Source: Candidatus Hydrogenedentota bacterium
GTDB lineage: Bacteria; Hydrogenedentota; Hydrogenedentia; Hydrogenedentales; CAIZGN01
Direction: 5' to 3'
Assembly: GCA_903932505.1 (NCBI GenBank)
Contig: CAIZGN010000056.1
Coordinates: 1 to 63,172 of the forward strand
Length of the DNA: 63,172 bases
In this document: positions 14,867 through 34,131 of the stretch, one piece after another
Layout of the letters: every line of letters starts with the position of its first letter
Numbering within the stretch: position 1 is the first letter of the stretch
Translations under genes and position numbers: made by a program
The notes under the pieces: model-generated
Seen by the model: the letters and a program-made list of their open reading frames with translations, nothing else
What the model was told of the DNA's origin: nothing
Database searches by the model: none

Positions 14867-15709
14867 ATGTCCCAGGATACACTGACTCCCGATCGTCCGA
14901 CCCTGTATCACTACAAACTCGACCAAATCCTCGGTGAAGGAGGTACGGGCCGGGTTTATCGCGGCATCGACACCATCAAGGGCGATGTGGCGGCCGTCAA
15001 GCTGTTCCACGAGAATTTTTTCCGCAACGCCCTGCATGTGCGCGATCTCGCGAAGTCTATCAAGCGCTCCAACAAGCTTTCCCACCCCAATGTGGTGGGG
15101 ATTTTCGAGTTCATCGACGGAAAAGACGGCCGCTGTATGAGCATGGAGTATGTGGACGGCCCTAATCTGAAGTGGTATATCCTGAATCGGCCATGGAACA
15201 TTCAGGAACGGCTTAACATCACCATTTCGATCTGTTCCGGTTTGCAGTATCTGCACGACAATGGATTTATGCACCACGATTTCAAGCCGTCGAACGTGTT
15301 GTTCACGCGGCGCGGCGTTCCCAAGGTCGCGGACTTTTCCCTGTACGGCAACAGTTACCTGCTGGAGTTGTTTGCGGGGGCGGTCGGAGAACAGATTACG
15401 CCGATGTTTGTCGCCCCGGAGTTCATCCGCAGGGAGAAAGCCACGCCGTCCGCCGACCAGTATTCGCTGGGGATCACCATGTACATGATGTTTGCCGACC
15501 GGGTTCCCTTTCCCGTCGACAGTATTCAGCGCCTCTACCAATGCCACCTGCACTACCTTCCTGATCATCCGAGCCAGGCAAATCCCAAATGCCCACGTGC
15601 CCTGGGCGATGTCATCATGAAGATGATTGCCAAGAAGACCTCGGATCGGTTTCGGGATTGCGACGAGATTCGCGCCATCCTGACCACGATGAATCAGAGC
15701 CGGATTTAA
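14867..15709 (+). CDS. stand-alone Ser/Thr protein kinase domain protein
   Basis: ATG at 14867, 11 nt after rsfS. Hanks-type motifs: LGEGGTGRVYRG (P-loop), AAVKLF (VAIK-like), HHDFKPSNVLF (catalytic loop), VADFS (DFG variant), FVAPEF (APE), DQYSLG. About 280 aa with no extra domains. Confidence 0.8.
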   Translation: MSQDTLTPDRPTLYHYKLDQILGEGGTGRVYRGIDTIKGDVAAVKLFHENFFRNALHVRDLAKSIKRSNKLSHPNVVGIFEFIDGKDGRCMSMEYVDGPNLKWYILNRPWNIQERLNITISICSGLQYLHDNGFMHHDFKPSNVLFTRRGVPKVADFSLYGNSYLLELFAGAVGEQITPMFVAPEFIRREKATPSADQYSLGITMYMMFADRVPFPVDSIQRLYQCHLHYLPDHPSQANPKCPRALGDVIMKMIAKKTSDRFRDCDEIRAILTTMNQSRI

Positions 15710-15728: not shown

Positions 15729-15757
15729 TTGACATCCCGACTGAATTCCAGTACATT
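15729..15757 (+). promoter_or_regulatory. possible sigma-70-type promoter upstream of the HEPN-SNF2 gene
   Basis: TTGACA (15729-15734), a 17-nt spacer, then TACATT (15752-15757), about 77 nt upstream of ATG 15834. Pattern match only. Confidence 0.3.
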
Positions 15758-15833: not shown

Positions 15834-18800
15834 ATGGAACTGGAAACTGGAACGAGGAAAGCGCAGGAATTGGTTGCGCCGCTACTAGGGGGAGTCACCT
15901 CTCATCTGGCCCGCTTTCTTAACCATGTCCTTCCGGCCATCGGGGACGATTGGTGGAAGAAGCTGGTCGTGGATCGTCTTTCGGTCAATCAGCAGCAGCG
16001 CCTGGCGCATCAGCCGGGCCCCTCACTAACAAGCCTCGATCTGGCCGCCTTACTGCGGGTTCTCGACCAGAACTGGTTTGAAATTACATCAAAGAATCAT
16101 CTTTCCGCCGAGGCCCGCCATTATGTGAAGGAGATGCAAACCATCCGCAATCGATGGGCGCATGCGGGCACGGATGGAGTTCCCGGCGAGGACGTTTACC
16201 GCGATCTGGATACACTTCAGCGTTTCGCTGCCGCAATTGGCGCGGACGAAGCGTTTCTTGAAGAGATACGCTTCGCAAAAAAGTCCATGCTGATTAGGGA
16301 ATCGCCCATGAGCATCCAAGTGAAGGAAGAGGCACCCCAAGATCCAGCCCCAAGGCTGGAGGGTGGCGCGGAATTCGCTCCAGGTCAGATGGTCATGTTG
16401 AAATCCAATCCCGCGATCCAGGGTGCCGTAATCGAAGTCCTTTTCTCCTCGCAAGAGAACCGCTTCAAGGTTTTCATGGGTGGGGGAATCCAGATCTACT
16501 ACGCTTCCCAACTTCAAGGGATTGTTCCGGCGGAGGAGAGGCAACCGGTAACTTGCGAACAATTTCATGCCCGCCTCACGGCGCTGCAAATTCTACATCC
16601 CGGCCTTTCCACGCTCTATTCGCTAAATACCGCCCGTGTCGATTTCATTCCCTATCAATTCCGGCCTGTGCTCAAGTTTATCCGTTCGGATCGCCCACGC
16701 CTGCTGATCGCCGATGGAGTCGGCGTGGGTAAGACCATCGAGGCAGGCCTTATCCTTCGAGAACTGCAGGCAAGGCGCGATCTTCGCTCCGTGCTCATTA
16801 TCTGCCCACGCCCCTTAATCACCGAGTCCAAGTGGCTCAATGAGATGAAGCGGTTCGAGGAACACTTTACCCATCTTGATGGCCCTGGTCTGAGGCATTG
16901 CATCAATGAAATGGATCTCGACGGGCAATGGCCGGAGCAGCACTCACGGGTAATCGTTCCATATTCCCTGTTTGATGAAACCCTTCTATATGGCCCTGAC
17001 CCGGGCAACAAACGGAAGCGCAAGAAGGGACTCCTAGCCCTGGATCCCCCTCCGCGCTTCGACTTGGTTATCGTGGATGAGGCGCACCACATTAGAAACC
17101 CGGAGACCTTCAGTCACAAGGCGGTTCGATTCTTTTGCGATCACGCCGAGGCCGTGCTCTTTCTCACGGCCACCCCCATACAACTTGGAGCAGACGACCT
17201 TTTTGTGCTGTTGAACACGCTGCGCCCGGATCTGATCATCGACAAGGCCAGCTTTGAGCACATGGCGGAGCCCAACCCATTCATCAATCAGGCTGCGGCG
17301 GCTGCCCGAGCCCAAGGGGATGGATGGGCGGGCCGAACATCGTCATACCTGAGCGAGGCCGCATCAACCGCATGGGGACAGGCAATTCTGAAACCAAACC
17401 CCGAATTCACCGATATGCAACGGCAGCTTTCAGAGGATGGTGGTATTTCTCCAGAGGAACGCATCAGGCTGATTGCCGATATTGAATCCTTACACACTTT
17501 TGCGGGAATCATCAACCGCACCCGGCGTCGGGACATTGGGGACTTCACCCTCCGTAAATCCCAAACCGTAACGGTGGAATTCACGAGTGCGCAAAGAGAA
17601 CTCCACGATGCGATCTTACAAGTTCAAGCGAAGATATTTCTGGCGATACATGGCGACAAAAACGTCAAATTCATGATGACCACCATCCGGCGGCAAGCCG
17701 CCAGTTGTTTGTTCGGACTTGCGCCATTTCTCCAAGAGATTCTAAGTCGGCACTTGGACGAACTGGCCTGGGAAGAGGCGGATGATTCAGCAACTGTCGC
17801 CGATGTGAAAGCTATCGACAAGATAGAAAGGGAGATTCAAGCCATTCTAAAAATGGCGGAAAACCTCGATCCTTTCGATCCGAAATTAGAAGCATTGCGG
17901 AAAATCATCCGGAACAAACAGAACCTTTCCAACAACAAGATCATGCTTTTCAGCAGCTTCCACCACACGCTTTACTATTTGCGTGACCAATTAGGGACCG
18001 GTGAATTCCGCATCGGCCTCATCCACGGCAAGACTCCGGACGAAGATCGCATGGATCTTAGGAGTCGCTTTGAAAGCCCGCGCGAAGAGGAAGACGCGCT
18101 TGATGTCCTGCTTTTCTCCGAAATCGGTTGTGAAGGCCTCGATTATCAATTTTGCGACTGCATCGTGAATTATGATCTGCCGTGGAACCCCATGCGGATC
18201 GAACAACGCATCGGTCGCATTGACCGAAACGGGCAGAGAAGCGAATCCGTGGCCATCTACAACCTGGTCACGCCTGGAACCGTCGACGCCAGCATTTACG
18301 AGCGGTGCCTGCTTCGTATCGGAATATTCGAGCATGCCATGGGCGATGCCGAGGAAATCCTCGGCAAAATCACCCGGGATATTCGCAATATCGCGGAAGA
18401 TCTCCAGCTTTCAGAAGAAGAACGCAACCACAAGCTCCAGCAATTGGCAGACAATGAAATTCGTTTAATCCAGGAACAGAACGCGCTGGAGGAAAAGCAA
18501 GTCGAACTGTTTGGCATTCGGGTACCACAGGATCATATGAAAAACGAAATTGAGGATGCGTCCAGTTTCTGGCTCTCGCCCACGGCCATCCAGCAACTCA
18601 TAAGCTTCTATCTCAAAGAAACCTGCGAAAAAGATCAAGACTTCATCCTCGGCGAGAAACCGCTCAAGACGCTTCGGCTTTCACAGGAAGCGCGGTCTGC
18701 CTTGCGCAATGATCTCCAGAAACTGTCCCGGCTGAAAAGCACCGTATATGGCGAATGGGACAGATGGCTGAAAGGCGGCGATCCCAATCTCTCCATCACC

Positions 18801-19433
18801 TTTGACGCCCAATGCGCGGCCCAGAATCCGAAGGCCGCCTTCATCACACCCATTCATCCTCTCGCCAAACAGGCGGCTGTGGCGTTGGGCCAGGAAAGGC
18901 CCGCAGCGGCTGCCTTCCAAGTGACTTCCGATGAGGCCCCTCCCGGCACCTACGAGTTTGCCATCTATCAGTGGCAGTTTCAGGGTATCCGTCAAGACGT
19001 GGTTCTGCAACCTGTGGTCAATTCACCGGAGATCACGCCTTTGCTCACTGACCTCCTGGCCAAGGCCGTCGAGACCGGTAGTTCCCGCAACTTTGATGTA
19101 CCTGCGACCGCATCGAGTGCGCTCGATGCTCAACACCACGTACTCTGGACTCAGGCACGTGAAGACCACGTCGAAAAAACGCGCCGGATGGCCCAGTACC
19201 GCAAGGAAAGCCTTAACACCAGCCACGCTGCAAGAGTGGCGTTGCTAAGAGAGCAAGCCGAACAATCCAAAGACGAAAAGATAAGGATAATGCGCCAAGC
19301 GCAAATGGCTTCTGCGGAAGCTGATTACGCTCGGCGCACGCAGGAATTGGATATAGCAGCAGAGCGGGCCGACATTATCGCGGAACCCGTGGCGTATGGG
19401 GTGCTTCAGATTCTTGAGGAGAATGCCGAATGA
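15834..19433 (+). CDS. Swt1-like HEPN domain fused to an SNF2-family (SF2) helicase with a long C-terminal extension
   Basis: Start at ATG 15834 (MELETG, GGGGAAGG upstream); the ORF opens at TTG 15780. HEPN-type Rx4H motif QTIRNRWAHAG (R codon at 16146), preceded by LLRVLDQNWF. Small beta-rich segment GQMVMLKSNPAIQGAVIEVLF...RFKVFMGGGIQIYYASQL, resembling the RapA N-terminal Tudor/SH3-like fold. SNF2 motifs: LLIADGVGVGKTIEAG (I, about 16722), DLVIVDEAHHIRN (II, about 17076), FLTATPIQ (III), LLFSEIGCEGLDYQFCDCIVNYDLPWNP (V), QRIGRIDRNGQ (VI, about 18204). The C-terminal extension is about 400 aa and ends in a coiled coil. Confidence 0.85.
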   Translation: MELETGTRKAQELVAPLLGGVTSHLARFLNHVLPAIGDDWWKKLVVDRLSVNQQQRLAHQPGPSLTSLDLAALLRVLDQNWFEITSKNHLSAEARHYVKEMQTIRNRWAHAGTDGVPGEDVYRDLDTLQRFAAAIGADEAFLEEIRFAKKSMLIRESPMSIQVKEEAPQDPAPRLEGGAEFAPGQMVMLKSNPAIQGAVIEVLFSSQENRFKVFMGGGIQIYYASQLQGIVPAEERQPVTCEQFHARLTALQILHPGLSTLYSLNTARVDFIPYQFRPVLKFIRSDRPRLLIADGVGVGKTIEAGLILRELQARRDLRSVLIICPRPLITESKWLNEMKRFEEHFTHLDGPGLRHCINEMDLDGQWPEQHSRVIVPYSLFDETLLYGPDPGNKRKRKKGLLALDPPPRFDLVIVDEAHHIRNPETFSHKAVRFFCDHAEAVLFLTATPIQLGADDLFVLLNTLRPDLIIDKASFEHMAEPNPFINQAAAAARAQGDGWAGRTSSYLSEAASTAWGQAILKPNPEFTDMQRQLSEDGGISPEERIRLIADIESLHTFAGIINRTRRRDIGDFTLRKSQTVTVEFTSAQRELHDAILQVQAKIFLAIHGDKNVKFMMTTIRRQAASCLFGLAPFLQEILSRHLDELAWEEADDSATVADVKAIDKIEREIQAILKMAENLDPFDPKLEALRKIIRNKQNLSNNKIMLFSSFHHTLYYLRDQLGTGEFRIGLIHGKTPDEDRMDLRSRFESPREEEDALDVLLFSEIGCEGLDYQFCDCIVNYDLPWNPMRIEQRIGRIDRNGQRSESVAIYNLVTPGTVDASIYERCLLRIGIFEHAMGDAEEILGKITRDIRNIAEDLQLSEEERNHKLQQLADNEIRLIQEQNALEEKQVELFGIRVPQDHMKNEIEDASSFWLSPTAIQQLISFYLKETCEKDQDFILGEKPLKTLRLSQEARSALRNDLQKLSRLKSTVYGEWDRWLKGGDPNLSITFDAQCAAQNPKAAFITPIHPLAKQAAVALGQERPAAAAFQVTSDEAPPGTYEFAIYQWQFQGIRQDVVLQPVVNSPEITPLLTDLLAKAVETGSSRNFDVPATASSALDAQHHVLWTQAREDHVEKTRRMAQYRKESLNTSHAARVALLREQAEQSKDEKIRIMRQAQMASAEADYARRTQELDIAAERADIIAEPVAYGVLQILEENAE

Positions 19434-22400
19434 TACAAGAGTTGATGGAAAAGCGCAAGAGATGGGTCGAGGCAAACCGTGAGAATGGATTTGAAACGGG
19501 TCTGAAACACCTGCTCACGGAGCTCTACCCGGACAACGCCCACTTCATCTACGAACTCCTGCAGAACGCCGAAGACGCACATGCTCAAGAAGTGCGGTTC
19601 ATCTTGGAGGAGAACCGCGTCGAATTTGAGCATAATGGAGAAAGGCTCTTCTCTTTCGAAGACGTCGACGCTATTACCAGCATCGGATTCAGCACCAAAC
19701 GCGACGACCCCACCAACATCGGGAAATTTGGCGTCGGCTTCAAGGCGGTTTTTGCCTATACCGAAACACCGGGAATCGAATCGGGAGAGTTTCATTTCCA
19801 AGTCCATGACATGGTAGTGCCGGAACCGATCGGCACTGCGCGGATCAAGCCGGGTGACAAGCAAACGCGATTCATTCTGCCTTTTAACAACCCGAAGAAG
19901 TCAGCGGATCGCGCGCGAAACGAGATCGAAACGCTTCTAAGAAAACTCGACGCGGCCACGCTGCTCTTCCTCACGCGTATCCGCAAGATCGAATATCTGC
20001 TTCCTGATACGTCTCTTGGCTACATCGAACGAATAGGGCATGGCGACCACCGATTCGAGATTCGCGTACAACAGCCTGATGAACTCGCCCCTTCGTCTAC
20101 TTGGTTTCTCAAGTTCGACAAAGAGGTTCAGGTGCAAGACGACGAGGCTGAGAATGAAGGCCAACAGCTGAAAACTTGCCGAATCGTCTTGGCCTTCGGA
20201 TTGTCGCCCGTCGCAACAAGAGCGGGCATTAAGGAAAAGAAAGACGTCGGTGCCATACCCGAATGGGAACTTGTGCCACTCGAGCGGGGGCGCGTCTGTA
20301 TCTATTTCCCGGCGGACAAGGAGACCTCCAATCTCCGCTTCCATCTACACGCACCATTTGCCTCCACTGTGGCGCGGGATAGTGTGCGCGATTGCCCGGG
20401 AAACAACGCACTACGCGACCACTTGGCCGAACTACTGGCCGAATCTATGCACGCCATTCGGGACCAAGGCCTGCTGACCGTGCGCACGTTGGCGCTGCTA
20501 CCCAACAACAAGGACAATCTGCCGACGCTCTATCAGCCACTTCTGGCCCGGCTGGTTAGGGAATTCCAGGTTCAGGATCTTGTCCCGATGAAACGCGACG
20601 GACATGCTTCGGCACGAAGCATATTTCGCGGGTCCGCCAAGCTGCAGGTGGTCATTGACGACAAGGATTTGGCCCATCTACTTAACAAACCGAAAGGGGC
20701 TCCGCTTTGGGCCGCAAATCCCCCACAACGGCATCAATGTGAGGACAATTTCCTCGCGGGCTTAGGTATCGAGCAATTAGAGTTGGAAAAACTGGTTCTC
20801 CATTTCTCATCTATCCCGGAAACGATGGAAGCATGGCTCAAGTCCAAGAGTATGCCATGGCACCGGAGTTTCTATGCGCTGCTCATCACGACCTTTTCGG
20901 AGAACGCCAGCTCTGAGTACCAAGCAACTCTCCGAAACCTTCCGCTTGTTCGGCTCGCTTCTGGAAGATATCAAGTCGGCCGCCAATCTTGTTTTCCTGT
21001 TGACCAGATGGATGTAAAGCATAAGCTGCAGCCGGTTGAGCGAGCAACGTACTCAGTTGACAATCAGGACGTTGATCAAGCAAAGAAATTTCTCAAGGCC
21101 ATAGGTGTCCGAGAATATAGTTTGACCGATGTGGTTGTCGATTTGATCATTCCAGAATATGAAGAACATGTCCCGCGAAAACGACATTTCAAGCACATCG
21201 CTACGATTCTCAAGGCAGTGGGGGAGGCGCCCAAACTAGAAAAGGAAAGCCTGAAGAAGCATCTCGGTGATACGGCATTCATTCTTGTGGAAAAGCCCGG
21301 CAAATCTAGTCACGCCTACGCAAAACCTGCAGAACTCTATTGGAGCTCCGAAAAGGACACCTCCCTTTGGAGGGAAAATCATGGAGTCAAATTCATTGAT
21401 GACGAGTATAACAAATCAAATCAGGAGTTTTTCCAAGAGCTCGGCGTCCAAGAGTTCGATATCGTTGAGAATGTCATCACGGCTATTCTTCCCTCGTATA
21501 GGGCCCCTGTTCCGCTAAAGCAGCACCGGCACGACATAGGGAAAATCTGTCAGGCGCTTGACACTGACTCTCAGGAGAAAAAGGCGAAACTACAGGATGC
21601 CCTATGCAAATCCTCGTTCGTTTTGACACAAACAGAATCGTCGACCGGTCCGCTCTACAAGAAACCGACTGAAGTGTCTCTGTTTGACAAGGAATGGTTC
21701 TCCTTCTTCCAAGATGGAGCCCCCCCACACTTCCTCAGTGAGGAATACGACGGAAAGATGGTTGAGAACTTTAAGGACCTCGGAGTTACTGCCCTCAATC
21801 CTATTGAGGCCGCGAAGACGATAATTTTCCGCATGGCGCATCTTTCATTGGAATCAGAGATTGACCGAAAACGCCATCTATCGAACATGCGGTTTCTCGC
21901 GGAAACTTGTTGGCCCCGCATCAAGAAGCAGACCGAAAAGGCCAGCCGAGAAAACTGGGTAAAGGAGTATAAAACACGGGCGTTCATCATCACCGAATCT
22001 GCTGATTCAAGACCGATGGCCTATAGAAGACCGGGCGACCTCTATTTCCACAGTGATGGCCTAGGGGCATACTTTACCGGAAATGAAGAAGGAAAGTTCG
22101 TCTGGGGGGAATATGGGGCCGCGATTCAGGAGTTCTTGGAGGCCTTTGGGGTGTCCCATGACGCGCGAGTCGAGAAAAAGAAAGAAGATCAGGCTCACAA
22201 TATCAGCATCGAAGCCAGTTGGGGCCATCATAAGCGCGGATTAGAGGGGTATGATCCCGAAATTAAGGTCGACGGCTTGCATGATGCGCTAATACTGCCT
22301 CCTTCTATGGAGAAGAGTCGGTATATCTGGAAGAAAATCGCCCTTCCTCATCAGCAGTGTATCACGGGATATATTGAATCCTCGTCGCGGCAGACCTTTG

Positions 22401-23197
22401 AGGGGAGCGAGAAGACGAAGGCGGAATCTGAAGGATTTGGCCGGTTCCTCATTGGAAGCCGGTGGTTGCCCAACAAAGAAGGTGAGTTCGTTTCGCCTAC
22501 AGAAGTAACACTCGACGTTTTGCCGGAGGATTTTCAAGGAGACCAAGTGTTGGCCAGTCAATTGGGCATGAAGCAGAATTACATTGGTGAACTCGCAAAA
22601 AAATGCGGTATTTCACCGGATCGTCTTGAGTTCACAAAAGACAACCCAGAAGAAATTGACCGGCTAATTGCTGAAAAAGAATCAAGGAAAAACAAACCGG
22701 AATTCCCTACTCAGGCGATAACGGATTCAGACCGCCGACGGGAAAAAGTTGCCGAGCAGCATGCTGATGCTCCTGCTAAGGAGTACGAGAAACGCGAGCG
22801 AAGCGTCCGGACTAGCGAGCCCGAAATTGATCGCAGAACAAGCCTTCGAAGCATGTATACAAACCCTGATGGGATAATGGTGTGTCAGGTCTGCGAGCAT
22901 GAAATGCCGTTCAAGAAACGCAATGGCGAGTATTACTTTGAAACGGTGGAGGCTCTTTCTAAAGACTATTTCACCAAAGAGCATGAGGCGCAGTTCTTGG
23001 CATTGTGCCCAGTGTGCGCGGCCAAGTATAAGGAGTTTGTAAAGTCCGATAACCATGCTATGGATGAATTCGTGAGCACATTGAAAGTTTCAGAGACGCC
23101 CGAGGTTCCGCTGAAACTGGGCGATTGGGATACTAGCCTCCGGTTTGTTGAAACGCATTTTCTTGACATCAAGACTATCCTCGGAGTCCTGGAATAA
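19430..23197 (+). CDS. sacsin-like GHKL (Bergerat-fold) ATPase with internal repeats and C-terminal zinc ribbon
   Basis: 1255 aa. The start overlaps the upstream stop (ATGA at 19430-19433). GHKL N-box FIYELLQNAEDA (19553-19579), then EFEHNGERLF and G-box NIGKFGVGFKAVF (19721-19744), the pattern seen in sacsin/MORC-type ATPases. Four to five repeats of about 113 aa each begin xF(L/F)xxLG(V/I) (aa 439-915). C-terminal CQVC...(44 aa)...CPVC (22883-23017). Confidence 0.8.
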   Translation: MIQELMEKRKRWVEANRENGFETGLKHLLTELYPDNAHFIYELLQNAEDAHAQEVRFILEENRVEFEHNGERLFSFEDVDAITSIGFSTKRDDPTNIGKFGVGFKAVFAYTETPGIESGEFHFQVHDMVVPEPIGTARIKPGDKQTRFILPFNNPKKSADRARNEIETLLRKLDAATLLFLTRIRKIEYLLPDTSLGYIERIGHGDHRFEIRVQQPDELAPSSTWFLKFDKEVQVQDDEAENEGQQLKTCRIVLAFGLSPVATRAGIKEKKDVGAIPEWELVPLERGRVCIYFPADKETSNLRFHLHAPFASTVARDSVRDCPGNNALRDHLAELLAESMHAIRDQGLLTVRTLALLPNNKDNLPTLYQPLLARLVREFQVQDLVPMKRDGHASARSIFRGSAKLQVVIDDKDLAHLLNKPKGAPLWAANPPQRHQCEDNFLAGLGIEQLELEKLVLHFSSIPETMEAWLKSKSMPWHRSFYALLITTFSENASSEYQATLRNLPLVRLASGRYQVGRQSCFPVDQMDVKHKLQPVERATYSVDNQDVDQAKKFLKAIGVREYSLTDVVVDLIIPEYEEHVPRKRHFKHIATILKAVGEAPKLEKESLKKHLGDTAFILVEKPGKSSHAYAKPAELYWSSEKDTSLWRENHGVKFIDDEYNKSNQEFFQELGVQEFDIVENVITAILPSYRAPVPLKQHRHDIGKICQALDTDSQEKKAKLQDALCKSSFVLTQTESSTGPLYKKPTEVSLFDKEWFSFFQDGAPPHFLSEEYDGKMVENFKDLGVTALNPIEAAKTIIFRMAHLSLESEIDRKRHLSNMRFLAETCWPRIKKQTEKASRENWVKEYKTRAFIITESADSRPMAYRRPGDLYFHSDGLGAYFTGNEEGKFVWGEYGAAIQEFLEAFGVSHDARVEKKKEDQAHNISIEASWGHHKRGLEGYDPEIKVDGLHDALILPPSMEKSRYIWKKIALPHQQCITGYIESSSRQTFEGSEKTKAESEGFGRFLIGSRWLPNKEGEFVSPTEVTLDVLPEDFQGDQVLASQLGMKQNYIGELAKKCGISPDRLEFTKDNPEEIDRLIAEKESRKNKPEFPTQAITDSDRRREKVAEQHADAPAKEYEKRERSVRTSEPEIDRRTSLRSMYTNPDGIMVCQVCEHEMPFKKRNGEYYFETVEALSKDYFTKEHEAQFLALCPVCAAKYKEFVKSDNHAMDEFVSTLKVSETPEVPLKLGDWDTSLRFVETHFLDIKTILGVLE

Positions 23198-23271: not shown

Positions 23272-23614
23272 ATGACCCAGCTGCTGTCACTTCCGGATAA
23301 TCCAGGATTTCTCGCCGTACTGAACGATCGCATCAGGCATGCCCGCCCCTCCGCTGTCCGCGCCGTCAATCATGAATTGGTTCTGCTTTACCGTGATATC
23401 GGGTACGGCATTGTGGAAAACCAACAGCCTGCAGGGTGGTTCGATGCGGCCGTGGAACACCTCCCCGCCGGTCTTCGCGCGGCAATTCTGCCCGGCGTAT
23501 TCCTGTGCCCAATTTCTTGAAGAGGCTGTTCAAGAATTGAAGAAAAGTGGGCAGCAGTCTCTTCCGCCTGGCGCGACCAACAAGCTCATTTGCCGGATGA
23601 AGGCGGCGGGATGA
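23272..23614 (+). pseudogene. frameshifted, truncated remnant of a DUF1016/YhcG-family (PD-(D/E)XK nuclease) gene; only the N-terminal domain is left
   Basis: Frame 1: LNDRIRHARPSAVRAVNHELVLLYRDIGYGIVENQQPAGW..VEHLPAGLRAAILPGV. This matches the N-terminal helical domain of YhcG/DUF1016 proteins as I remember them (..RIR.A...A.RAVN.EL..LYW.IG..I.E.Q...GWG..VV..LS..L..EFPG..GFS). The frame stops at 23520. Similarity seems to continue in another frame (..QFLEEAVQ..GQQSLPPGATNKLI, compare QQ.LPWGHN..L) up to 23614. No nuclease domain follows. Confidence 0.5.
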
Positions 23615-24601: not shown

Positions 24602-24638
24602 CCGGTGTTTACCGTAGGGGGTTTTGGGGGTGTTGACC

Positions 24639-26018
24639 ATGTTCAAGGTTCGACGCCGTTGGTGGTACGCGTCTGCGGTCGCTTTGGCAGGCCTGATGCT
24701 GGTCGGCCTTCTCGCGGTTTGGGATATGCGCATGCGGCAGGCCCCTCACCTGGGTTTCGCCCCCTCAGAGGCGCAGTGGCTCGCTTTCGCACCAGACTTC
24801 CCCGCGTTCAGCGCGGCACTGCAGACTTCCGACCCAGTTCAGCGCGTTCTCTCGAAAATCCCGGCGGGCGAGACCTCGATGGCCTCTGTGGCCGGATGGA
24901 CTCGTTTCTGGATTGGGGGTCCGATCCTGTTTTCGGAAGGTGCGGGAAGCTGGGGTTGTTGCCTCCGGCCGGGTGCCGCCTTGCGGATCACGTGCTGGCT
25001 CAAGGAAAAGACGGGCCGCCCTGCGCTTTTTGGGCGGCTGCACTATTGCTGGCGTGACGGCTTCTTGCTGGCCTCGGAAAGCCAGGGGTATCTGGCCCTT
25101 GCGATGAATGCACCCCGCGTGGACGGGCTGACCCCGCCGCAGTCGACAAACGCCCTCAAATTTCAGATGCATTGGCAAGACCGAGCCTTGGCGTCAAATC
25201 CAGCGCAAAAACTGGAGGCCACCCTCTGGGCCGGGCCCGAACTGCACATCGAGGGGCGCGCCATGCTGGACGCCGCCTTTGCGGGGGGCGGCACCCTGAC
25301 TCTTCCGGACGCTTGGAGTACCCCGCCGCTTCTTATTCTTGCCGGTGGCACCCATGATGATCTTGACGCAATGCTCCGTTGGTTTTCGAAAACACTACCC
25401 GAAGACGGGACGCTTGCCTTGGCTTTTCCGGGTGCGGCCGATACGGTGGGGCGACTGTGGCAGACCCTCGCCACGGTGTGTCCTGCGGAAACCGCGATCG
25501 TATGCCGGGGTATTGATTTTTCTGGGGCTATTCCAGTGCCGGAGGTTGGCTTGGTGGCCCTGCGCCCGACAGGCGGCACCATGTCCGAGGCGCTGAGTCC
25601 TTTCGTGTCCACCCCGGAGGCGATACGCTACGCTTGGGGTCGGCGGGAAGGCTGGCAGTTACCCCTGCTTGGTTCAGAAGGCACCCTCTGCATGACCACC
25701 GTGCAGCCCTACTGGCTCTTTGCCGCACAGGAACGAACCATGGCCGCGCTGCTGGACGGATTGCAGGGAGGGCGTCCAGCGGACGCCAACCTCGCGTTGC
25801 GTCTGGACTGGAGGCAGTTGAGTGGCGTGTTGTCAGAGGTGCTGCTTCGAGCGGCCCGATGGGAACTGTTGCCCGAGTGCAATGAGGCCGATGTATGTCG
25901 GGACTGGCTTCCACTTTGCGAGGCGACTGGTGACTTGGGGCAAGCGGCCATCGATGCCCAGGCGTGGGGTGGTTGGCTGCAGTTCAAGGGGCAATTGTCC
26001 CGCAGGAGTCAGCCATGA
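24639..26018 (+). CDS. hypothetical membrane-anchored protein
   Basis: Start MFKVRRRWWYASAVALAGLMLVGLLAVW (a single N-terminal TM). The stop overlaps the start of the next gene (ATGA at 26015-26018). Confidence 0.55.
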   Translation: MFKVRRRWWYASAVALAGLMLVGLLAVWDMRMRQAPHLGFAPSEAQWLAFAPDFPAFSAALQTSDPVQRVLSKIPAGETSMASVAGWTRFWIGGPILFSEGAGSWGCCLRPGAALRITCWLKEKTGRPALFGRLHYCWRDGFLLASESQGYLALAMNAPRVDGLTPPQSTNALKFQMHWQDRALASNPAQKLEATLWAGPELHIEGRAMLDAAFAGGGTLTLPDAWSTPPLLILAGGTHDDLDAMLRWFSKTLPEDGTLALAFPGAADTVGRLWQTLATVCPAETAIVCRGIDFSGAIPVPEVGLVALRPTGGTMSEALSPFVSTPEAIRYAWGRREGWQLPLLGSEGTLCMTTVQPYWLFAAQERTMAALLDGLQGGRPADANLALRLDWRQLSGVLSEVLLRAARWELLPECNEADVCRDWLPLCEATGDLGQAAIDAQAWGGWLQFKGQLSRRSQP

Positions 26019-27889
26019 TTGCCGTCACCCTGCTCTGTATCGCCGCCAGCCTCTTGGGTGCGCCGGAGACGGCATGGAATCCGGCGGTGCTGCCCTTGGC
26101 TCGAGATGGCGTTGCTGCGGCCTTGGGAAACGGGCTCCTTTCGGCGGGCTTGGACGCACGGGGAAATTTGCGCACGTTCTTCTGGCCCGGGCCGGGCGGA
26201 AACAATCAACTGGCTGCTGAACAGGGCGGTCAATCCTGCGCAGGCTTTTTTCTGGGGCTCCGCGGTCAGGTGATTTCGCTCGCGGATCCGGCATGGCAGG
26301 TGGAGTCCCAGTGCGACCTTGGGCTGGACAGACGGGCGGTGGAAACCCGGCTCGTATTGCCAGACACGGGGGTGCACGCGCGGCAAATAGCCTTGGTGGA
26401 GGAATCGGCGGATGCGCTGTCAATGCAGATTGCCGTGAGCGGTACAGCGGAGGCACCGCGCATATTCTGGTATCAGGACTTCGACCCGAAGACCGTGCGC
26501 ATTCCCGAGGTTGCGTGGTGTGGCGCGCTCAATCGGGCGGGTGTCGATTTTGCGGCGTTCCTCATGTCCGCGCCGACTTTTCGTGGCTATCAGTTTCGCC
26601 CGGCGGCTCCATCCGCCGCTCAAAGGCACGAGACGCGGAGTTTGCTGCAAGCATCCACCGCTGTCGGGCCAGACCTAGCCGCATTGTGGGGGGCAACGGT
26701 TGTGCCGTCGGTGTGGGTGGGTCTGTCCAGCCCCAACCGACCGATCCACGCCGCCTGTGGCAATGTGGGCGAGGCGGATGGCCCTCTGGCCCAAGTGCGA
26801 CAGGGACGCATCGGGGAAACAGCGGCCGCCGTGGGGGATTGTGATGTGGCGGTCGAACTTGAGCCTCAGTCGCGTGGTGAGGAATACAGCGTGACGTTGC
26901 GTCTGGCCTTTGGTGCAAACCGCAAGCGGGTGGACGAGCTTCTAGATGCGGCAGCGGAGGCAACGTTCGATCCTCCAGTGGTGGCAGAGTCGGACGTGGA
27001 AAGGCAACGCGCCCGTGCGCTGACCACCTTGCTTCACGCGATCGACCGCGCGACGGGAGCGGTGGTGCGTGCGCCTGTGGCAGAACCGGCGCAGCCTATC
27101 GTTTCTGCCGAGGTGACAGCATGGGTCTCGCTTGCGCTGGATCTTGCAGGGCGACACAACCAGGCAGCAGACGCGCTGCGCTTCCTGCGCAATCAGGTGC
27201 GCCTGCAATCCACACCCGGGCAACCCAGCGGGTCTCTCGCCTCGGCCTACTACGCAGACGGTGTCCCCGCCTCGCCCCACTGGGTCTTGGAACCAGAGGC
27301 GGTCGCGTGGTTGCTCAGCGGGCTATGGCGGCACGGCGCGCTGCTTTCCGAGAGCGAGAAGAAAGCTTGGTTTGAGGAAAGCTGGGACGCGGCCCGCGCC
27401 TCGGCCGATTTTCTGGAACAATGGACATCGGGGCCGGGTGGGACACCGCTTCCAGGCTATGATCCATCGCAGGGCCGGGACGCAGTCCGGGATGTTTCCA
27501 TCCTGCACCATCTCATGGGGATCAATGCGGCGATACGTATGAACGCTGTGCTCGGTCGGAAAATGGTGGATCCCTGGATACGGCACCGAGATGAGCTGGA
27601 TAACCAGTTGCGTTCAAAGATGCTGGGCGGTTTAACGTCCGCCCTGTGCGTACCAGAAACGCTTCCGTTCTGGTTGCGCGGGGTTCTGGAAAACGAACGG
27701 GATGCGGTGTGGAATGCGTCAGCCATTGCCAAGGGCGAGTCCCGGACTTTGGGTGCATTTTCTTTCGGGCCGACGACCGAATGGACCCGGGACGCGGGGG
27801 TGGACGCCTATGCGGCGGCGTTGGCGTATATCGCGCTGCAAGGCGGGATGCCTACAGAAGCGGCTCCTCAACGGCCTCCAGCTGGCTGA
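26015..27889 (+). CDS. hypothetical secreted protein; weak resemblance to glucoamylase-like alpha/alpha-barrel proteins
   Basis: ATG 26015 with AGGAG upstream. Signal-like MIAVTLLCIAASLLGAPETAW. The C-terminal half (WVSLALDLAGRHNQAADALRFL...WLLSGLWRHG...SADFLEQW) loosely resembles GH15-type barrels. The functional call is weak. Confidence 0.5.
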   Translation: MIAVTLLCIAASLLGAPETAWNPAVLPLARDGVAAALGNGLLSAGLDARGNLRTFFWPGPGGNNQLAAEQGGQSCAGFFLGLRGQVISLADPAWQVESQCDLGLDRRAVETRLVLPDTGVHARQIALVEESADALSMQIAVSGTAEAPRIFWYQDFDPKTVRIPEVAWCGALNRAGVDFAAFLMSAPTFRGYQFRPAAPSAAQRHETRSLLQASTAVGPDLAALWGATVVPSVWVGLSSPNRPIHAACGNVGEADGPLAQVRQGRIGETAAAVGDCDVAVELEPQSRGEEYSVTLRLAFGANRKRVDELLDAAAEATFDPPVVAESDVERQRARALTTLLHAIDRATGAVVRAPVAEPAQPIVSAEVTAWVSLALDLAGRHNQAADALRFLRNQVRLQSTPGQPSGSLASAYYADGVPASPHWVLEPEAVAWLLSGLWRHGALLSESEKKAWFEESWDAARASADFLEQWTSGPGGTPLPGYDPSQGRDAVRDVSILHHLMGINAAIRMNAVLGRKMVDPWIRHRDELDNQLRSKMLGGLTSALCVPETLPFWLRGVLENERDAVWNASAIAKGESRTLGAFSFGPTTEWTRDAGVDAYAAALAYIALQGGMPTEAAPQRPPAG

Positions 27890-30138: not shown

Positions 30139-33100
30139 CTATTCCGCCGGGCAAATCACCCGGAAGCCCACGTTGTAGACGTGCTGCCAAGGCTCGTAGG
30201 CTTGGCGGCTCGAGGCGGTGGCGTGTTTGGGTCGGTCGAACCATGAACCGCCGCGCACGGATTTCTTCTCCCGTCCATCGGCGTTGCTGGCTTCCTGATA
30301 GGGATAGGGGCGGTAGGCACTGCGGGTCCACTCGGCGGCATTGCCGAGCATGTCACACAAGCCCCACACATTGGGCTGATACTTGCCCACCGTCGTCATG
30401 ATCTTCTCGCCATCGCTGAAACGGGTATCCTTGATCAGGAAATCTTGGAACGGCGAGGGATTTTTGATGGGTTGCGGGTCGATGCCATCCACCGCCAGCA
30501 GCTTGAGGGAGAGGTCGGCCAAATTGGCGAAGGGGGAGAAGTCCGCATCGGCTTCGCCAAAGTAGAACGGCGAGGCCGCGCCCGCACGACAGGCCCATTC
30601 CCATTGGGTCTCGGAAGGAAGAGAGAATCCGCGCCCGGTCTTCGTGGCGAGCCACTGACAGAAGGCGGAGGCCTCGTCCCAACTGATTCGGATGGCGGGC
30701 ATTTCAGGATCCTGCACGGAGTAGCCGGGTCGCGTATGATCCTTGTGGTGCTGGTCAATGACGCCGTTGTCGTGTTTGGGGTCAAAGGTCTGATACTGGC
30801 GATTGGTGATTTCGGTCACACCCATCCAGAACGGCTTTTCGATTCTGACCTGAGTCTGCGGGAATTCATCATTTGCGCCAAAACGGCTGCCCATGATGTA
30901 TTCGCCCGCCGGGATGAGGCTCAGCCGCAAGGTCACGCCGTTGCCAAGATCGAGGGTATCCTCCGTCTTAGCGCCGGCCGCTTTCTGGTTTTCGGCAGCC
31001 TTTTTCGGATTGATCGGCCAGTCCGGGCAATCGAGGCTTTTCTTCGGACGCTCGGGCTCGGGCTGAGGCTGCACGAAGGCCACCGGGGCGGCGGGGGGAG
31101 GAAGTTGCTCCGGATCTTCGGTGCTAGCGGCATAGCAGGCCCTCATGGCGAGGCGACGCTTGTCGAAGTCCTTCGGAATGCTGCCATAGGCCTCAAGCCA
31201 CGAACCCTTGTCCGGCACATTGAGGTCGATCCAGGTGTAGAGGCGATCCCAGGCCTCATTATCGAGCTGGACGCCGTGGTGGCCTTTTTCAAGCATCTGG
31301 ATGAGCTCACTGGTGCTGGCGTGGAACTCAAGCGGCGTCAGGATATGGTAATCGCTCTCGGGGCCCGGACGTCGCACGTAGGGATGCAGTTCCAGATAGG
31401 ACGTGCTGAACCCGCCGGGGGTCTTGTCATCCCTGAGTCGCAGGTCAGGCTTGGGCCCGCCATCGGCTGAGGGTGATCCATCGTGACAGCCGATGCAGAA
31501 CTTGTCGAGCACCGGCTGCACCTCGCGCTTGAAACTGAAACCGCGCGCGGGTCCGTACCAGGGTTGGATGTCCTTGGGAGCATTGCGCGCTGCCACATTG
31601 GCACCCAGCGCGGGCGACATGTTCTGCCGTTCGTGACAGCCCGCGCAACTGACCATTTCACCGGGCATGCCGACGAACCAGCTGCGCATGAGTTGCAGCG
31701 CGCGACCCTGCGCGTCGAGTGGTTGGATGGCCACAGGGGTGTTCGCGGGAATTTTGAAGGAGGCAGAGCCATCCTCGTCCACCGGGACAGTTCCGAGAAT
31801 CCGGCGCACGTCCCACGAGCCTTCCACGCCCACATTGATGTGCCCGCCGATGTTTGGATAGGCGTAGTGGAAGCCGTAAACCCGAAGCGATTTCACCGTG
31901 CCTCTTGGGACATCCCGCAGTCCGGGACCGGCGTAGACGTCCGACACATAAACCGTCGCGTCCTTGGATTCGAGGTTGACCTTGTCTGGAATCGTCGGCG
32001 GTCTTTGGCTCTTGCGCAGGGGGAGGGGTTCAAAGAGCGCGTAGCCCGGTTCCTCGGCCAGCAACTGGCGATTGCCGAAGACATCCACGAGATAGACGCC
32101 CCAGGCCGCATCCGCCGTGGGCTTGCACGAAACCAGCAGATAGTTTTTGTTCAGCGGGTAAGGATGCAGAAACTTGGGCCAGACATTGTCGACCAGCGTG
32201 TCCATGATGACCGGCTCGACTTTCTTGCCGTAACCGGGAATGCGTTGCACCACCCCATCGCCCTCGGTGCGACCCTTCGCGGGGTCGAGCAGAATCAATT
32301 CACCCATGCGCGGCACGCCGTGGTGTCCGGAAATAATGGCGGCCACCATGCTGGGTTCGCCGGGCACCGGCCGTGCATAGAAGGTCGAGTTGGGCCAGTA
32401 CGAGTTGCTGCCGTAGTACTCCGCCTGGTTGGTGCCATCGGGATTCATGCTGAAGAGGAGACGGGAGAAGTAGTGCGGGGTGTCGGAGTACTCCCAGCGG
32501 GTGTACATGATGCGCCCGTTTTGCAGCAAGGTCGGGCACCAATCGTGATCCTGATCAAAACAGAGTTGCCGGATGGCTGAACCATCGGCATTCATCAAGC
32601 ACAGATTGGCGACCGTGTTGGAACCGCCCACGCAGGGCACCCCCTGAAAGCACCGGGTGGATCCAAAGACAATGCGCTCGTCGGGCAGGTAACAAGCGTC
32701 ATAGTTGTCCACATCGGGTTCGGTGCCGGGGGTCACTTGGCGCAGGCCGTTGCCATCGGCGCCAATCTCGAAGATCTGCCAGCGGTCATTCGTGCCCGGC
32801 ATGGAGAAGAGCATCTTCCCCGCATCGAAATGCAGATCCACATCGCCCACGAACTCGCCGTTCTGCGGGCGGAAAAACGTTTTCGGAACGGCCCCTTTTT
32901 CCTTGTAGGCCAACTGATCGATCTCGTTGTCATAGCCTTTCTGGCCCATGGCGCAGTTACCCTGCCAGTTCTGGGGCAGTCCGAGATTACCCGCGCCGCG
33001 TTTCACCAGAAGAAGCGTATCGAAGTCGAGCAGAGGGTTGGCGAGAAGTGCTTCGCGTTGCAGCTCGAGCAGTTGCTGCAGCTCCTGAACCCCGGCGTCT

Positions 33101-34131
33101 TCCCCCCGGCCCAGCGCGCTTTCGATCTCTGGAATGCGGCCCTTGCAGGCATCCACGCGGGCGAGAAAATCCTTGCCCTTGGGGTAGGTGGCCGAAAAGG
33201 CGGTATCGAGATCCTCAATGGCGAGGCGCAGCGCCACGAAATCGACCTGGCGCAATTTCGCGAGGTTTTCCCGGAAAACGCTCGCGCGCACATACAGGTC
33301 CAACCATTGCGGATCATCGGAAGGCACACGCCCGTCCTTGAGCGCGCTTGCGGCCTGTTGGATGGGCTGGGCGGCTGTTCCCGTTTCACTCAGCGTACGC
33401 GCGAACATGTCCATTTGCGCGTCGGTGTTGTCCGGGCGGAGGAACCAGGCCAAACCCGCACTACCCGGCGCATCGCGCTTGATCCACGACGATTCTCGAG
33501 GAAAATCCTTTTCAATTTTCGGCCAGTAGAGGTTGGAAGGATCGGCGGGCGACGCAAAATAGAACGAATACGCGCCCTGCGCATGAAAGACCTTCACCAA
33601 GAGTGTGTTTTCACCGGCGTGCAAAGCCAGTTCGATGTTCTCCGGATTGGTGGCTAGGGCTTCTTTGCGAAAAACCTCCTGTCCGTTCAGCCACAGTTGC
33701 AGACCCTGACTGTCGCCACCGAGGGCAATCGGCAGGCTCAGGTCCTTGGCGGCCGTGAGGGTGCGGTACAGATAGATGACGGAATTGTCCGGCCCCGAAA
33801 GCCCGCTCGTGGCATAGTCGAGGTATTCCAATCGGGCGTTCCACACCCGCTCGTCCTTGGGATTCTTCGCGTTGATGTCCACGCCCTGTTCAGGGAAAGC
33901 CGCCTCGGCCAAGGACGAAACTCGGATGGGATTGGTGGTGTACCACACCCCGAGAGTCACGGGCCATTGGGCCTGGGTTTGCTGAGCGGCCGCACGGCAA
34001 GTCCGCATGGTTTCCTGCCAGGACGCGCCTTTGGCGTATTCACGCGGCAGTGCTTCTCCGGCGCGGGCCGGGATGCAGAGGCTCAGGCCAACGCAGGCCA
34101 ACAACAAGGACGCCAACAATGATTTCCGCAT
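30139..34131 (-). CDS. giant secreted multidomain protein: N-terminal lectin/PA14-like region, beta-propeller-like middle, two CxxCH motifs, C-terminal FGE-sulfatase (SUMF1/PvdO-type) domain
   Basis: 1330 aa. Signal peptide MRKSLLASLLLACVGLSLCIPARA. SCAGCHERQN (31633-31647) and FCIGCHDGSP (31483-31497). The C-terminal ~260 aa (LIPAGEYIMGS...ISWDEASAFCQWL...RLPSETQWEWACRAG...GNAAEWT...VRGGSWFD...GFRVICP) match the FGE-sulfatase fold. Confidence 0.8.
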   Translation of the reverse strand: MRKSLLASLLLACVGLSLCIPARAGEALPREYAKGASWQETMRTCRAAAQQTQAQWPVTLGVWYTTNPIRVSSLAEAAFPEQGVDINAKNPKDERVWNARLEYLDYATSGLSGPDNSVIYLYRTLTAAKDLSLPIALGGDSQGLQLWLNGQEVFRKEALATNPENIELALHAGENTLLVKVFHAQGAYSFYFASPADPSNLYWPKIEKDFPRESSWIKRDAPGSAGLAWFLRPDNTDAQMDMFARTLSETGTAAQPIQQAASALKDGRVPSDDPQWLDLYVRASVFRENLAKLRQVDFVALRLAIEDLDTAFSATYPKGKDFLARVDACKGRIPEIESALGRGEDAGVQELQQLLELQREALLANPLLDFDTLLLVKRGAGNLGLPQNWQGNCAMGQKGYDNEIDQLAYKEKGAVPKTFFRPQNGEFVGDVDLHFDAGKMLFSMPGTNDRWQIFEIGADGNGLRQVTPGTEPDVDNYDACYLPDERIVFGSTRCFQGVPCVGGSNTVANLCLMNADGSAIRQLCFDQDHDWCPTLLQNGRIMYTRWEYSDTPHYFSRLLFSMNPDGTNQAEYYGSNSYWPNSTFYARPVPGEPSMVAAIISGHHGVPRMGELILLDPAKGRTEGDGVVQRIPGYGKKVEPVIMDTLVDNVWPKFLHPYPLNKNYLLVSCKPTADAAWGVYLVDVFGNRQLLAEEPGYALFEPLPLRKSQRPPTIPDKVNLESKDATVYVSDVYAGPGLRDVPRGTVKSLRVYGFHYAYPNIGGHINVGVEGSWDVRRILGTVPVDEDGSASFKIPANTPVAIQPLDAQGRALQLMRSWFVGMPGEMVSCAGCHERQNMSPALGANVAARNAPKDIQPWYGPARGFSFKREVQPVLDKFCIGCHDGSPSADGGPKPDLRLRDDKTPGGFSTSYLELHPYVRRPGPESDYHILTPLEFHASTSELIQMLEKGHHGVQLDNEAWDRLYTWIDLNVPDKGSWLEAYGSIPKDFDKRRLAMRACYAASTEDPEQLPPPAAPVAFVQPQPEPERPKKSLDCPDWPINPKKAAENQKAAGAKTEDTLDLGNGVTLRLSLIPAGEYIMGSRFGANDEFPQTQVRIEKPFWMGVTEITNRQYQTFDPKHDNGVIDQHHKDHTRPGYSVQDPEMPAIRISWDEASAFCQWLATKTGRGFSLPSETQWEWACRAGAASPFYFGEADADFSPFANLADLSLKLLAVDGIDPQPIKNPSPFQDFLIKDTRFSDGEKIMTTVGKYQPNVWGLCDMLGNAAEWTRSAYRPYPYQEASNADGREKKSVRGGSWFDRPKHATASSRQAYEPWQHVYNVGFRVICPAE

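Follow-up and report, generated by a model that had tools for sequence, protein, structure and literature searches.

A sacsin-like GHKL ATPase and a SNF2 helicase with an optional HEPN domain form a conserved bacterial gene pair that may act in genetic conflict

Prokaryotic GHKL ATPases of the MORC and paraMORC families are encoded in operons resembling restriction-modification (R-M) systems, together with SWI2/SNF2 helicases and HNH nucleases, and have been proposed to act as ATP-driven DNA-looping or clamp partners of the motor (Iyer, Abhiman and Aravind 2008, PMC2292703). We analyzed a gene pair of related composition, a HEPN-SNF2 helicase gene followed by a sacsin-like ATPase gene, on contig CAIZGN010000056.1 of the Candidatus Hydrogenedentota bacterium assembly GCA_903932505.1; the window is the whole 63,172-nucleotide stretch analyzed. 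In the MORC/paraMORC systems and in the window pair alike, a GHKL ATPase with an S5/middle module is encoded next to a helicase of the superfamily 2 (SF2)/SNF2 type, and the MORC/paraMORC helicase operons are the closest functional precedent for the pair. The MORC systems differ in that their ATPases belong to the MORC GHKL clade and are often accompanied by an HNH nuclease, whereas the window pair has a sacsin-type GHKL domain, a fused and apparently inactive HNH domain, and a predicted RNase effector on the helicase. PADLOC and Pfam scans of the neighboring open reading frames (ORFs) revealed neither a methylase nor a restriction endonuclease in the window module. The parts are already known individually: the sacsin-like ATPase from the Tiamat defense system, the fusion of a Swt1-like HEPN domain to a SWI2/SNF2 ATPase, catalogued in 2013 (WQE_15321; PMC3710099), and the GHKL, SNF2 and HNH logic from the MORC systems. 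What looks new is the pairing of a sacsin-clade GHKL protein, with an invariant histidine and a degenerate McrA-type HNH domain, with a DrmD-like SNF2 helicase that carries an optional Swt1-HEPN domain. The pair matched no system-specific model in PADLOC-DB v2, and we found no description of a system combining SNF2 and sacsin-like proteins in the literature searched.

The helicase gene (15834..19433, 1199 residues, assigned by Pfam, PADLOC and NCBIfam) and the ATPase gene (19430..23197, 1255 residues) lie on the forward strand, as do all window features given below unless another strand is stated. The ATG of the ATPase gene overlaps the helicase stop codon, the TGA lying inside the ATGA at 19430-19433, which gives a 4-nucleotide overlap of the two genes. 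To place this arrangement in a wider sample, 83 related loci were collected; genome contigs searched with the single protein gave only two loci, whereas searching metagenomes with an alignment was productive. Of the related loci, 75 have 1 kb or more of upstream DNA, and in 66 of these 75 the ATPase gene is immediately preceded by a SNF2 helicase gene of the same strand; the gap between the helicase and ATPase genes across related loci is usually -4 to +72 nucleotides. Seven of the nine loci without the upstream helicase encode an ATPase without the HNH-like C-terminus, and therefore represent another subfamily. A Rhizobium plasmid has kept the pair even though its ATPase is only 29% identical; RefSeq names the two proteins 'helicase-related protein' and 'hypothetical protein', and the product of a 176-residue gene before the helicase gene gave no Pfam match. 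On balance, we favor the interpretation that the pair is a conserved, horizontally mobile two-gene conflict system, anti-phage or anti-plasmid, directed at nucleic acid.

The ATPase family is large. More than 3,370 relatives came up in a word-indexed protein search, and among representatives of 50%-identity clusters an exhaustive HMMER search with the ATPase region matched 1,247 at E ≤ 1e-30, a number that rose to 6,161 when the threshold was E ≤ 1e-3. In three of eight atypical-length relatives, a superfamily 1 (SF1) helicase is fused C-terminally to the sacsin-like ATPase. The constant theme is a sacsin-like ATPase with a helicase, whereas the HEPN domain is an optional part of the helicase and a putative effector module. 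Among the relatives P0144, P0202, P0165 and P0235, some have the SACS module and a C-terminal SF1 (AAA_11/AAA_12) helicase fused in a single chain; P0235 (1508 residues) has two stretches that match the SACS model, and these may be SACS domains in tandem like those of eukaryotic sacsin. A full-length ATPase with the HNH-like C-terminus stands alone downstream of psaA/psaB in Phormidium sp. FACHB-1136 (locus L002, 9989-13192), with no helicase within 10 kb upstream. In loci L004 (13185-16727), L028 (12105-15845) and L054 (10701-14534), the gene directly downstream of the sacsin-like one codes for a large RecD-like SF1 helicase (1074-1278 residues). A pooled scan gave PADLOC PDC-S68 matches at E = 0 for four flanking ORFs, and the RecD-like helicases are the likely matches. 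The downstream RecD-like helicase may be an accessory third gene or a defense-island neighbor.

A first-pass annotation of the locus had recognized, from its motifs, a sacsin-type GHKL ATPase starting at 19430, and this held: the N-terminal domain is of neither the histidine-kinase nor the MutL type. The GHKL (Bergerat-fold) ATP-binding domain spans 19430..20210, as defined by Pfam, NCBIfam, PDB profile, Foldseek and conservation evidence, and contains the N-box YELLQNAEDA (residues 41-50, 19550-19579), the segment EFEHNGERLF (residues 65-74, 19622-19651), and the G2 box GKFGVGFKAVF (residues 98-108, 19721-19753). The ATPase matched the Pfam SACS family PF25794 at 1.5e-18 (67.9 bits against a 32.8-bit cut-off) and the NCBIfam family NF047352, 'sacsin N-terminal ATP-binding-like', at 1.4e-25 (89.6 bits against a 50-bit cut-off). 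In PDB sequence searches the single sequence matched the sacsin SR1 entries 5V44-5V47 at 1e-11 to 1e-10 and the family profile matched them at approximately 4e-15 to 5e-14, and neither search returned a non-sacsin GHKL chain at E ≤ 1. A structure model of residues 1-580, built from 45 homologs (mean predicted local distance difference test score, pLDDT, 78), was compared with the PDB using Foldseek; human sacsin SR1 ranked first, full-length TRAP1 and Hsc82 next, and then GRP94, MLH1 and MutL. By these PDB sequence and fold searches, sacsin is the nearest relative of the N-terminal domain of the ATPase, ahead of MutL, Hsp90, MORC and histidine kinases. With the eukaryotic sacsin SRR/SR1 module (5V44-5V47, PF25794) it shares the ELxQNAEDA N-box, the GxFGxGF box, the lid lysine, an Hsp90-like middle region with a conserved arginine and, in the probable register of the window protein, a non-aspartate adenine-contact residue. 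The architectures differ: sacsin has three ATPase modules together with UBL, DnaJ and XPCB domains, whereas the window protein has one module and none of those domains. In a Pfam scan the sole domain of the window protein was one SACS domain, and no DnaJ, UBL or tandem SRR appeared.

Residue conservation was assessed with 45 ATPase homologs for the N-terminal part, 33 for the C-terminus, 46 helicases and 28 HEPN sequences. E42 (the catalytic glutamate), D49 of the N-box, G98, G101 and G103 of the G2 box, the lid lysine K90, and R316 are invariant, and N46 is kept in at least 90% of the ATPase homologs. H68 (codon 19631-19633), at the probable position of the DxGxG aspartate, is also invariant, and is the last residue of a predicted strand (residues 63-68). 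The DxGxG aspartate of GHKL proteins normally sits at the end of such a strand. Sacsin has Asn160 at the adenine-contact position, the equivalent of Hsp90 Asp79 (PMC9880540), and in the probable register this residue corresponds to His68 of the window protein. HMMER alignments of the ATPase to sacsin placed the gap around EHNG unreliably, and position 69, beside H68, alternates between asparagine and aspartate across the homologs. H68 probably replaces the adenine-contact aspartate, and since it is invariant the exchange would be a family trait rather than decay. The histidine-for-aspartate substitution proposed in the first-pass annotation thus gains from the invariance of H68 and its place at the strand end, in a register that is probable, and is weakened by the alternation at position 69. 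The window ATPase further differs from sacsin in being bacterial, in being operonic with a SNF2 helicase and in ending in a putatively dead HNH domain.

The GHKL domain is followed by an Hsp90-like middle region (20211..21088). Because the model of residues 1-580 aligns with full-length TRAP1 and Hsc82 over 529-569 columns, the predicted structure assigns the ATPase protein an Hsp90-like N-terminal domain plus middle domain. Within the middle region, the invariant segment HLHAPFASTVARDSVRD (20342-20392) contains R316, a candidate catalytic arginine that by analogy would be the equivalent of sacsin Arg474 and Hsp90 Arg380 (PMC9880540). Three tandem repeats of approximately 113-121 residues come next (residues 554-666, 667-780 and 781-901; 21089..22132). 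They were detected by Smith-Waterman pairwise local alignment against shuffles, with z = 20.9, 13.9 and 7.3 for the repeat pairs, and self-BLASTP of the repeat region gave no match. Two of the three repeats constitute an insertion of approximately 200 residues that makes the window protein longer than its homologs of approximately 1040-1080 residues; the family ranges from one to three repeats of approximately 115 residues, and most homologs align with one. The three-repeat array is an expansion, specific to the lineage, of what may be a recognition module.

The C-terminus contains an HNH-like zinc-ribbon domain of the McrA type (22883..23029; CQVC ... YYFETVEAL ... LALCPVCAAKY), identified by profile and fold searches, in which the catalytic histidines are missing. 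The 33-sequence C-terminal profile matched the HNH domain of EcoKMcrA (6GHC) at E = 1.1e-6, and the top Foldseek matches of a model of residues 951-1255 (pLDDT 79) were the HNH domains of McrA (6GHC), Cas9 and Cap5. EcoKMcrA and the window C-terminus have in common the CxxC...CxxC zinc-ribbon and the beta-beta-alpha fold, but McrA keeps its catalytic histidines and the window protein does not. In the alignment, EVHHVIP of McrA is replaced by FE(A/T)VE and CPNCHRELH by CPxCAAxY, such that the general-base HH pair is aligned with V/E and the metal-binding histidine is replaced by alanine; both histidine positions are lost in 33 of 33 sequences, and no substitute histidine was seen among them. 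Since the general-base and metal-binding histidines are gone, the domain, which is HNH-derived, is probably not able to cleave DNA. A single-sequence Pfam scan of the C-terminus at E ≤ 10 gave weak matches to generic zinc fingers, and neither HNH nor DUF3883/PD-(D/E)XK. A further conserved motif at the C-terminus, ETHxxD (23150..23167), has its histidine and aspartate invariant in the 33 homologs.

The N-terminal half of the ATPase protein is homologous to that of Tiamat, a single-gene system with a PD-(D/E)XK/DUF3883 nuclease (10.1101/2024.10.26.620412), whose architecture we took from this secondary source and from the PADLOC profiles; relatives occur in defense islands. Nine PADLOC TmtA profiles match the ATPase, the best being PDLC03972 (9.1e-69, residues 2-679), and a more distant plasmid-borne relative, annotated as a DUF3883 protein, adjoins QatABCD. 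These likenesses would be expected if the ATPase gene were a plain Tiamat (tmtA) defense gene with an unrelated helicase neighbor. However, the best TmtA profile is matched only over its positions 7-678 of 1302, i.e., the N-terminal half, and two of the three defining features of Tiamat, the PD-(D/E)XK/DUF3883 nuclease (no Pfam match at E ≤ 10) and the single-gene organization, are lacking; in their place are an HNH-like C-terminus and an obligate-looking helicase partner, linked in the 66 of 75 loci given above. We consider an ordinary Tiamat gene to be an improbable explanation.

The helicase partner has a SNF2 core (16668..18236; SNF2-rel_dom 1.9e-17, Helicase_C 2.5e-19) with intact motifs I (GVGVGKT, 16716-16736), II (VDEAHH, 17073-17090) and VI (QRIGRIDRNGQ, 18204-18236), the residues of which are invariant in the 46 homologs. 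The closest helicase profiles are those of DISARM DrmD and BREX BrxHI/BrxHII, the PADLOC matches being DrmD at 7.6e-113 (best), BrxHI at 5.5e-54 and HmaA at 7.5e-39. A fragment or variant of a DISARM or BREX-related (Hma-type) system, with the helicase acting as DrmD or BrxH, could account for these matches, but the helicase scored 291.7 bits against the NCBIfam DrmD model, under its 610-bit equivalog cut-off, and the ORFs scanned around the pair in the window gave no PADLOC or Pfam match to DrmA/B/C (DrmB = DUF1998), PglZ, DUF499 or a methyltransferase. With the other components missing, membership in DISARM, BREX or Hma was rejected, and we hold even a fragment or variant of such a system to be very improbable. 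The DUF499 ATPases of BREX-related (Hma) type-1 systems can carry an optional N-terminal HEPN domain as a backup effector (PMC12839542), and in both the HEPN-DUF499 proteins and the window helicase a HEPN domain of the Swt1/Abi2 clade is an optional N-terminal addition to an NTPase that belongs to a DNA-targeting system. The HEPN-DUF499 and WQE_15321 reports name no sacsin-like partner, and those systems include a methyltransferase.

The HEPN domain of the window pair occupies only the first approximately 140 residues of the 1199-residue helicase (15903..16241) and belongs to the Swt1-like family (HEPN_Swt1, PF18731; 1.2e-19, 71.1 bits against a 27.5-bit cut-off), which was the sole family matched in the Pfam scan. 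Its Rx4H motif, RNRWAH (16146-16163), is intact, and R105, N106 and H110 are invariant among the 28 homologs; from this intact, invariant site the domain is predicted to be an active RNase. A small conserved beta-rich domain (LKSNP..GAV..RFKVF..YYASQLQ), recognized in the alignment, lies between the HEPN domain and the helicase core (16374..16560). A Pfam scan of the N-terminal segments of the 46 complete partner helicases found HEPN_Swt1 in 34, and the other 12 start at the beta-rich domain or bear an unrelated N-terminal domain. In locus L054 (4062-4700) a DUF2283 domain takes the place of HEPN, and in L060, L061 and L063 an unrelated domain of approximately 250 residues without a Pfam match does so; these replacement domains may be alternative effector or sensor modules. 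A 64-residue Swt1-HEPN remnant (L040, 1171-1362; E = 1.6e-6 with a custom hidden Markov model, HMM) lies just before a truncated, HEPN-less helicase ORF, which suggests that HEPN was lost there by decay. Across the related loci, HEPN-less ones included, the custom HEPN HMM located the domain solely at helicase N-termini and never in a gene of its own.

It had been suggested in the first-pass annotation that adjacent, translationally coupled GHKL and HEPN genes reproduce the domain partnership of eukaryotic sacsin, and that they represent an ancient functional linkage and a prokaryotic forerunner of the sacsin architecture. Part of this proposal was borne out: the ATPase is of the sacsin type, a HEPN domain is indeed encoded in the overlapping neighboring gene, and it recurs beside the ATPase in the 34 of 46 systems. 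Prokaryotic fusions of HEPN and GHKL domains also exist, in the form of Ymh-HEPN on paraMORCs (PMC3710099). However, the neighboring gene encodes a SNF2 helicase, not a plain HEPN protein, and the two HEPN domains are of different clades. The HEPN domain of sacsin is in cis with the ATPase modules; Anantharaman et al. 2013 (PMC3710099) assign it to the NT-associated HEPN-T clade (PF05168) and state that a chaperone already in existence acquired it from a toxin-antitoxin system of prokaryotes. The Swt1-like HEPNs form a different clade, Abi2/Swt1, in the same paper, and the window HEPN resides on the helicase. No sacsin HEPN chain in the PDB was matched at E ≤ 10 by the window HEPN or by the 28-sequence profile, and the sole HEPN-like match, a weak one, was to a chain named HepS. 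In the 120 best ATPase homologs and the eight atypical-length relatives, no HEPN domain was found in cis with the ATPase. Given that the HEPN domains come from different clades and sit on different host proteins, and that HEPN is dispensable, being absent from 12 of the 46 helicases, the resemblance to sacsin is superficial, and on this comparison of sequences it is best read as convergent, not ancestral. The invariant partner of the ATPase is a helicase, which is of the SNF2 type and encoded in trans in 66 of 75 loci, and of the SF1 type and fused in cis in other relatives. The shared-origin view, which would also have to accommodate the lack of DnaJ, UBL and tandem SRR domains in the window protein, is therefore very unlikely, and the same-partnership claim was not supported. 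Because the domains are of different HEPN clades on different proteins, the co-occurrence of GHKL and HEPN in sacsin and in this operon is no evidence for an ancestral partnership; the pair is a good candidate for defense-system screens, without the evolutionary insight that had been proposed for it.

The genomic context bears on whether the pair moves between genomes. The GC content at third codon positions (GC3) is 0.61 and 0.57 for the two genes of the pair, compared with 0.68-0.76 for the flanking gatA, gatB, rsfS, kinase and downstream genes, a pattern that would fit these two genes alone having been acquired horizontally. In locus L004 the pair has a type I R-M system on one side and NERD/UvrD genes on the other, and flanking genes in other loci include R-M, RecD-like PDC-S68, NERD, DndB, ArdC, resolvase, integrase and IS66 genes; one plasmid-borne pair of relatives is found beside an ABC-three-component system. 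The low GC3 and the restriction, defense and mobile-element neighbors of the relatives together point to a horizontally moving defense module. A housekeeping role, in which a RapA-like transcription or chromatin remodeler works with an Hsp90-like chaperone and the pair has no part in conflict, could draw on the match of the helicase to the RapA model (4.9e-53), on the Hsp90-like fold of the N-terminal and middle domains, and on the position of the window pair just downstream of gatA, gatB and rsfS and of the Phormidium gene next to psaAB. The RapA score, 180.6 bits, is far under the 576-bit cut-off, though, and the atypical GC3 for the host, the patchy distribution, the varying location between loci, the plasmid-borne copies, the IS66, integrase and R-M neighbors and the toxin-type domains all speak for mobility and conflict. 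We regard a purely housekeeping function as unlikely.

HEPN RNase domains and degenerate HNH domains are hallmarks of conflict systems (PMC3710099). From the operon conservation, domain content and genomic context that we observe, we infer an interaction, a trigger and an outcome for the proposed two-gene conflict system as follows. The GHKL and middle-domain module would work as an ATP-driven dimerizing clamp or switch, as in MutL, Hsp90 and MORC, and the repeat array together with the catalytically dead HNH zinc-ribbon would bind DNA or a foreign structure. The ATPase protein would then recruit or license the SNF2 motor encoded just upstream. In approximately three quarters of the systems, the window pair included, the HEPN RNase on the motor, with its intact Rx4H site, could be an optional effector, cleaving RNA and halting infection.

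Several points weigh against this interpretation. The defense role of the family is putative, and the physical interaction of the two proteins is deduced only from gene order. Because the HNH domain is predicted to be dead, the HEPN-less systems have no recognizable nuclease, and the core may work without cleavage or for another purpose. A histidine at the putative adenine-contact position leaves ATP binding by the ATPase unproven, and the N-terminal model has stretches of low confidence (pLDDT below 50 at residues 84-98 and 264-318). The neighbors also include many genes of ordinary metabolism (purD, ABC transporters, psaAB), and the defense neighbors are given here as individual occurrences.

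If the conflict role is confirmed, a common two-gene module would be added to the catalogue of prokaryotic immune systems, and a tractable bacterial model would become available for the sacsin-type ATPase. Whether the sacsin-type ATPase of the human disease protein binds nucleotide continues to be debated (PMC9880540). A more speculative extension, which we put forward tentatively and hold to be possible rather than probable, is that the HEPN-SNF2/sacsin-like pair is a widespread uncharacterized anti-phage system, in which the GHKL protein, its invariant histidine replacing the adenine-binding aspartate, senses nucleic acid of the invader through its dead HNH domain and repeats and licenses the SNF2-RNase; that bacterial sacsin-like ATPases in general would be helicase-coupled immune modules; and that eukaryotic sacsin and the 'sacsin-like' antiviral genes would be their descendants, with HEPN gained independently. 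Genes named 'sacsin-like' occur in part of the literature on fish and oyster antiviral responses, which could hint that the clade has an immune role in animals.

Other features surround the pair in the window. In the 124-nucleotide gap before the helicase gene there is a sigma-70-like promoter match, TTGACA-17-TACATT (15729..15757), which is a consensus match only; eight sigma-70-like sites were found in the region compared with a shuffled expectation of 5.9 ± 2.6, which is not above chance. The gene directly upstream of the module encodes a 280-residue Ser/Thr protein kinase (14867-15709; PADLOC mad6 2.4e-56, PD-T4-6 8.2e-55). The kinase was considered as a third component of the module and rejected, being absent from all other loci and having a host-like GC3 of 0.73. 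Just after the module, an 82-residue ORF (23272-23520) has a weak DUF1016_N match and may be the remnant of a YhcG-type nuclease gene. Two overlapping ORFs further downstream (24630-26018 and 26015-27889, 462 and 624 residues) have no Pfam or PADLOC match and a host-like GC of 0.63. On the reverse strand, 30139-34131 encodes a 1330-residue protein with HZS_alpha (hydrazine-synthase alpha-like) and FGE-sulfatase domains.

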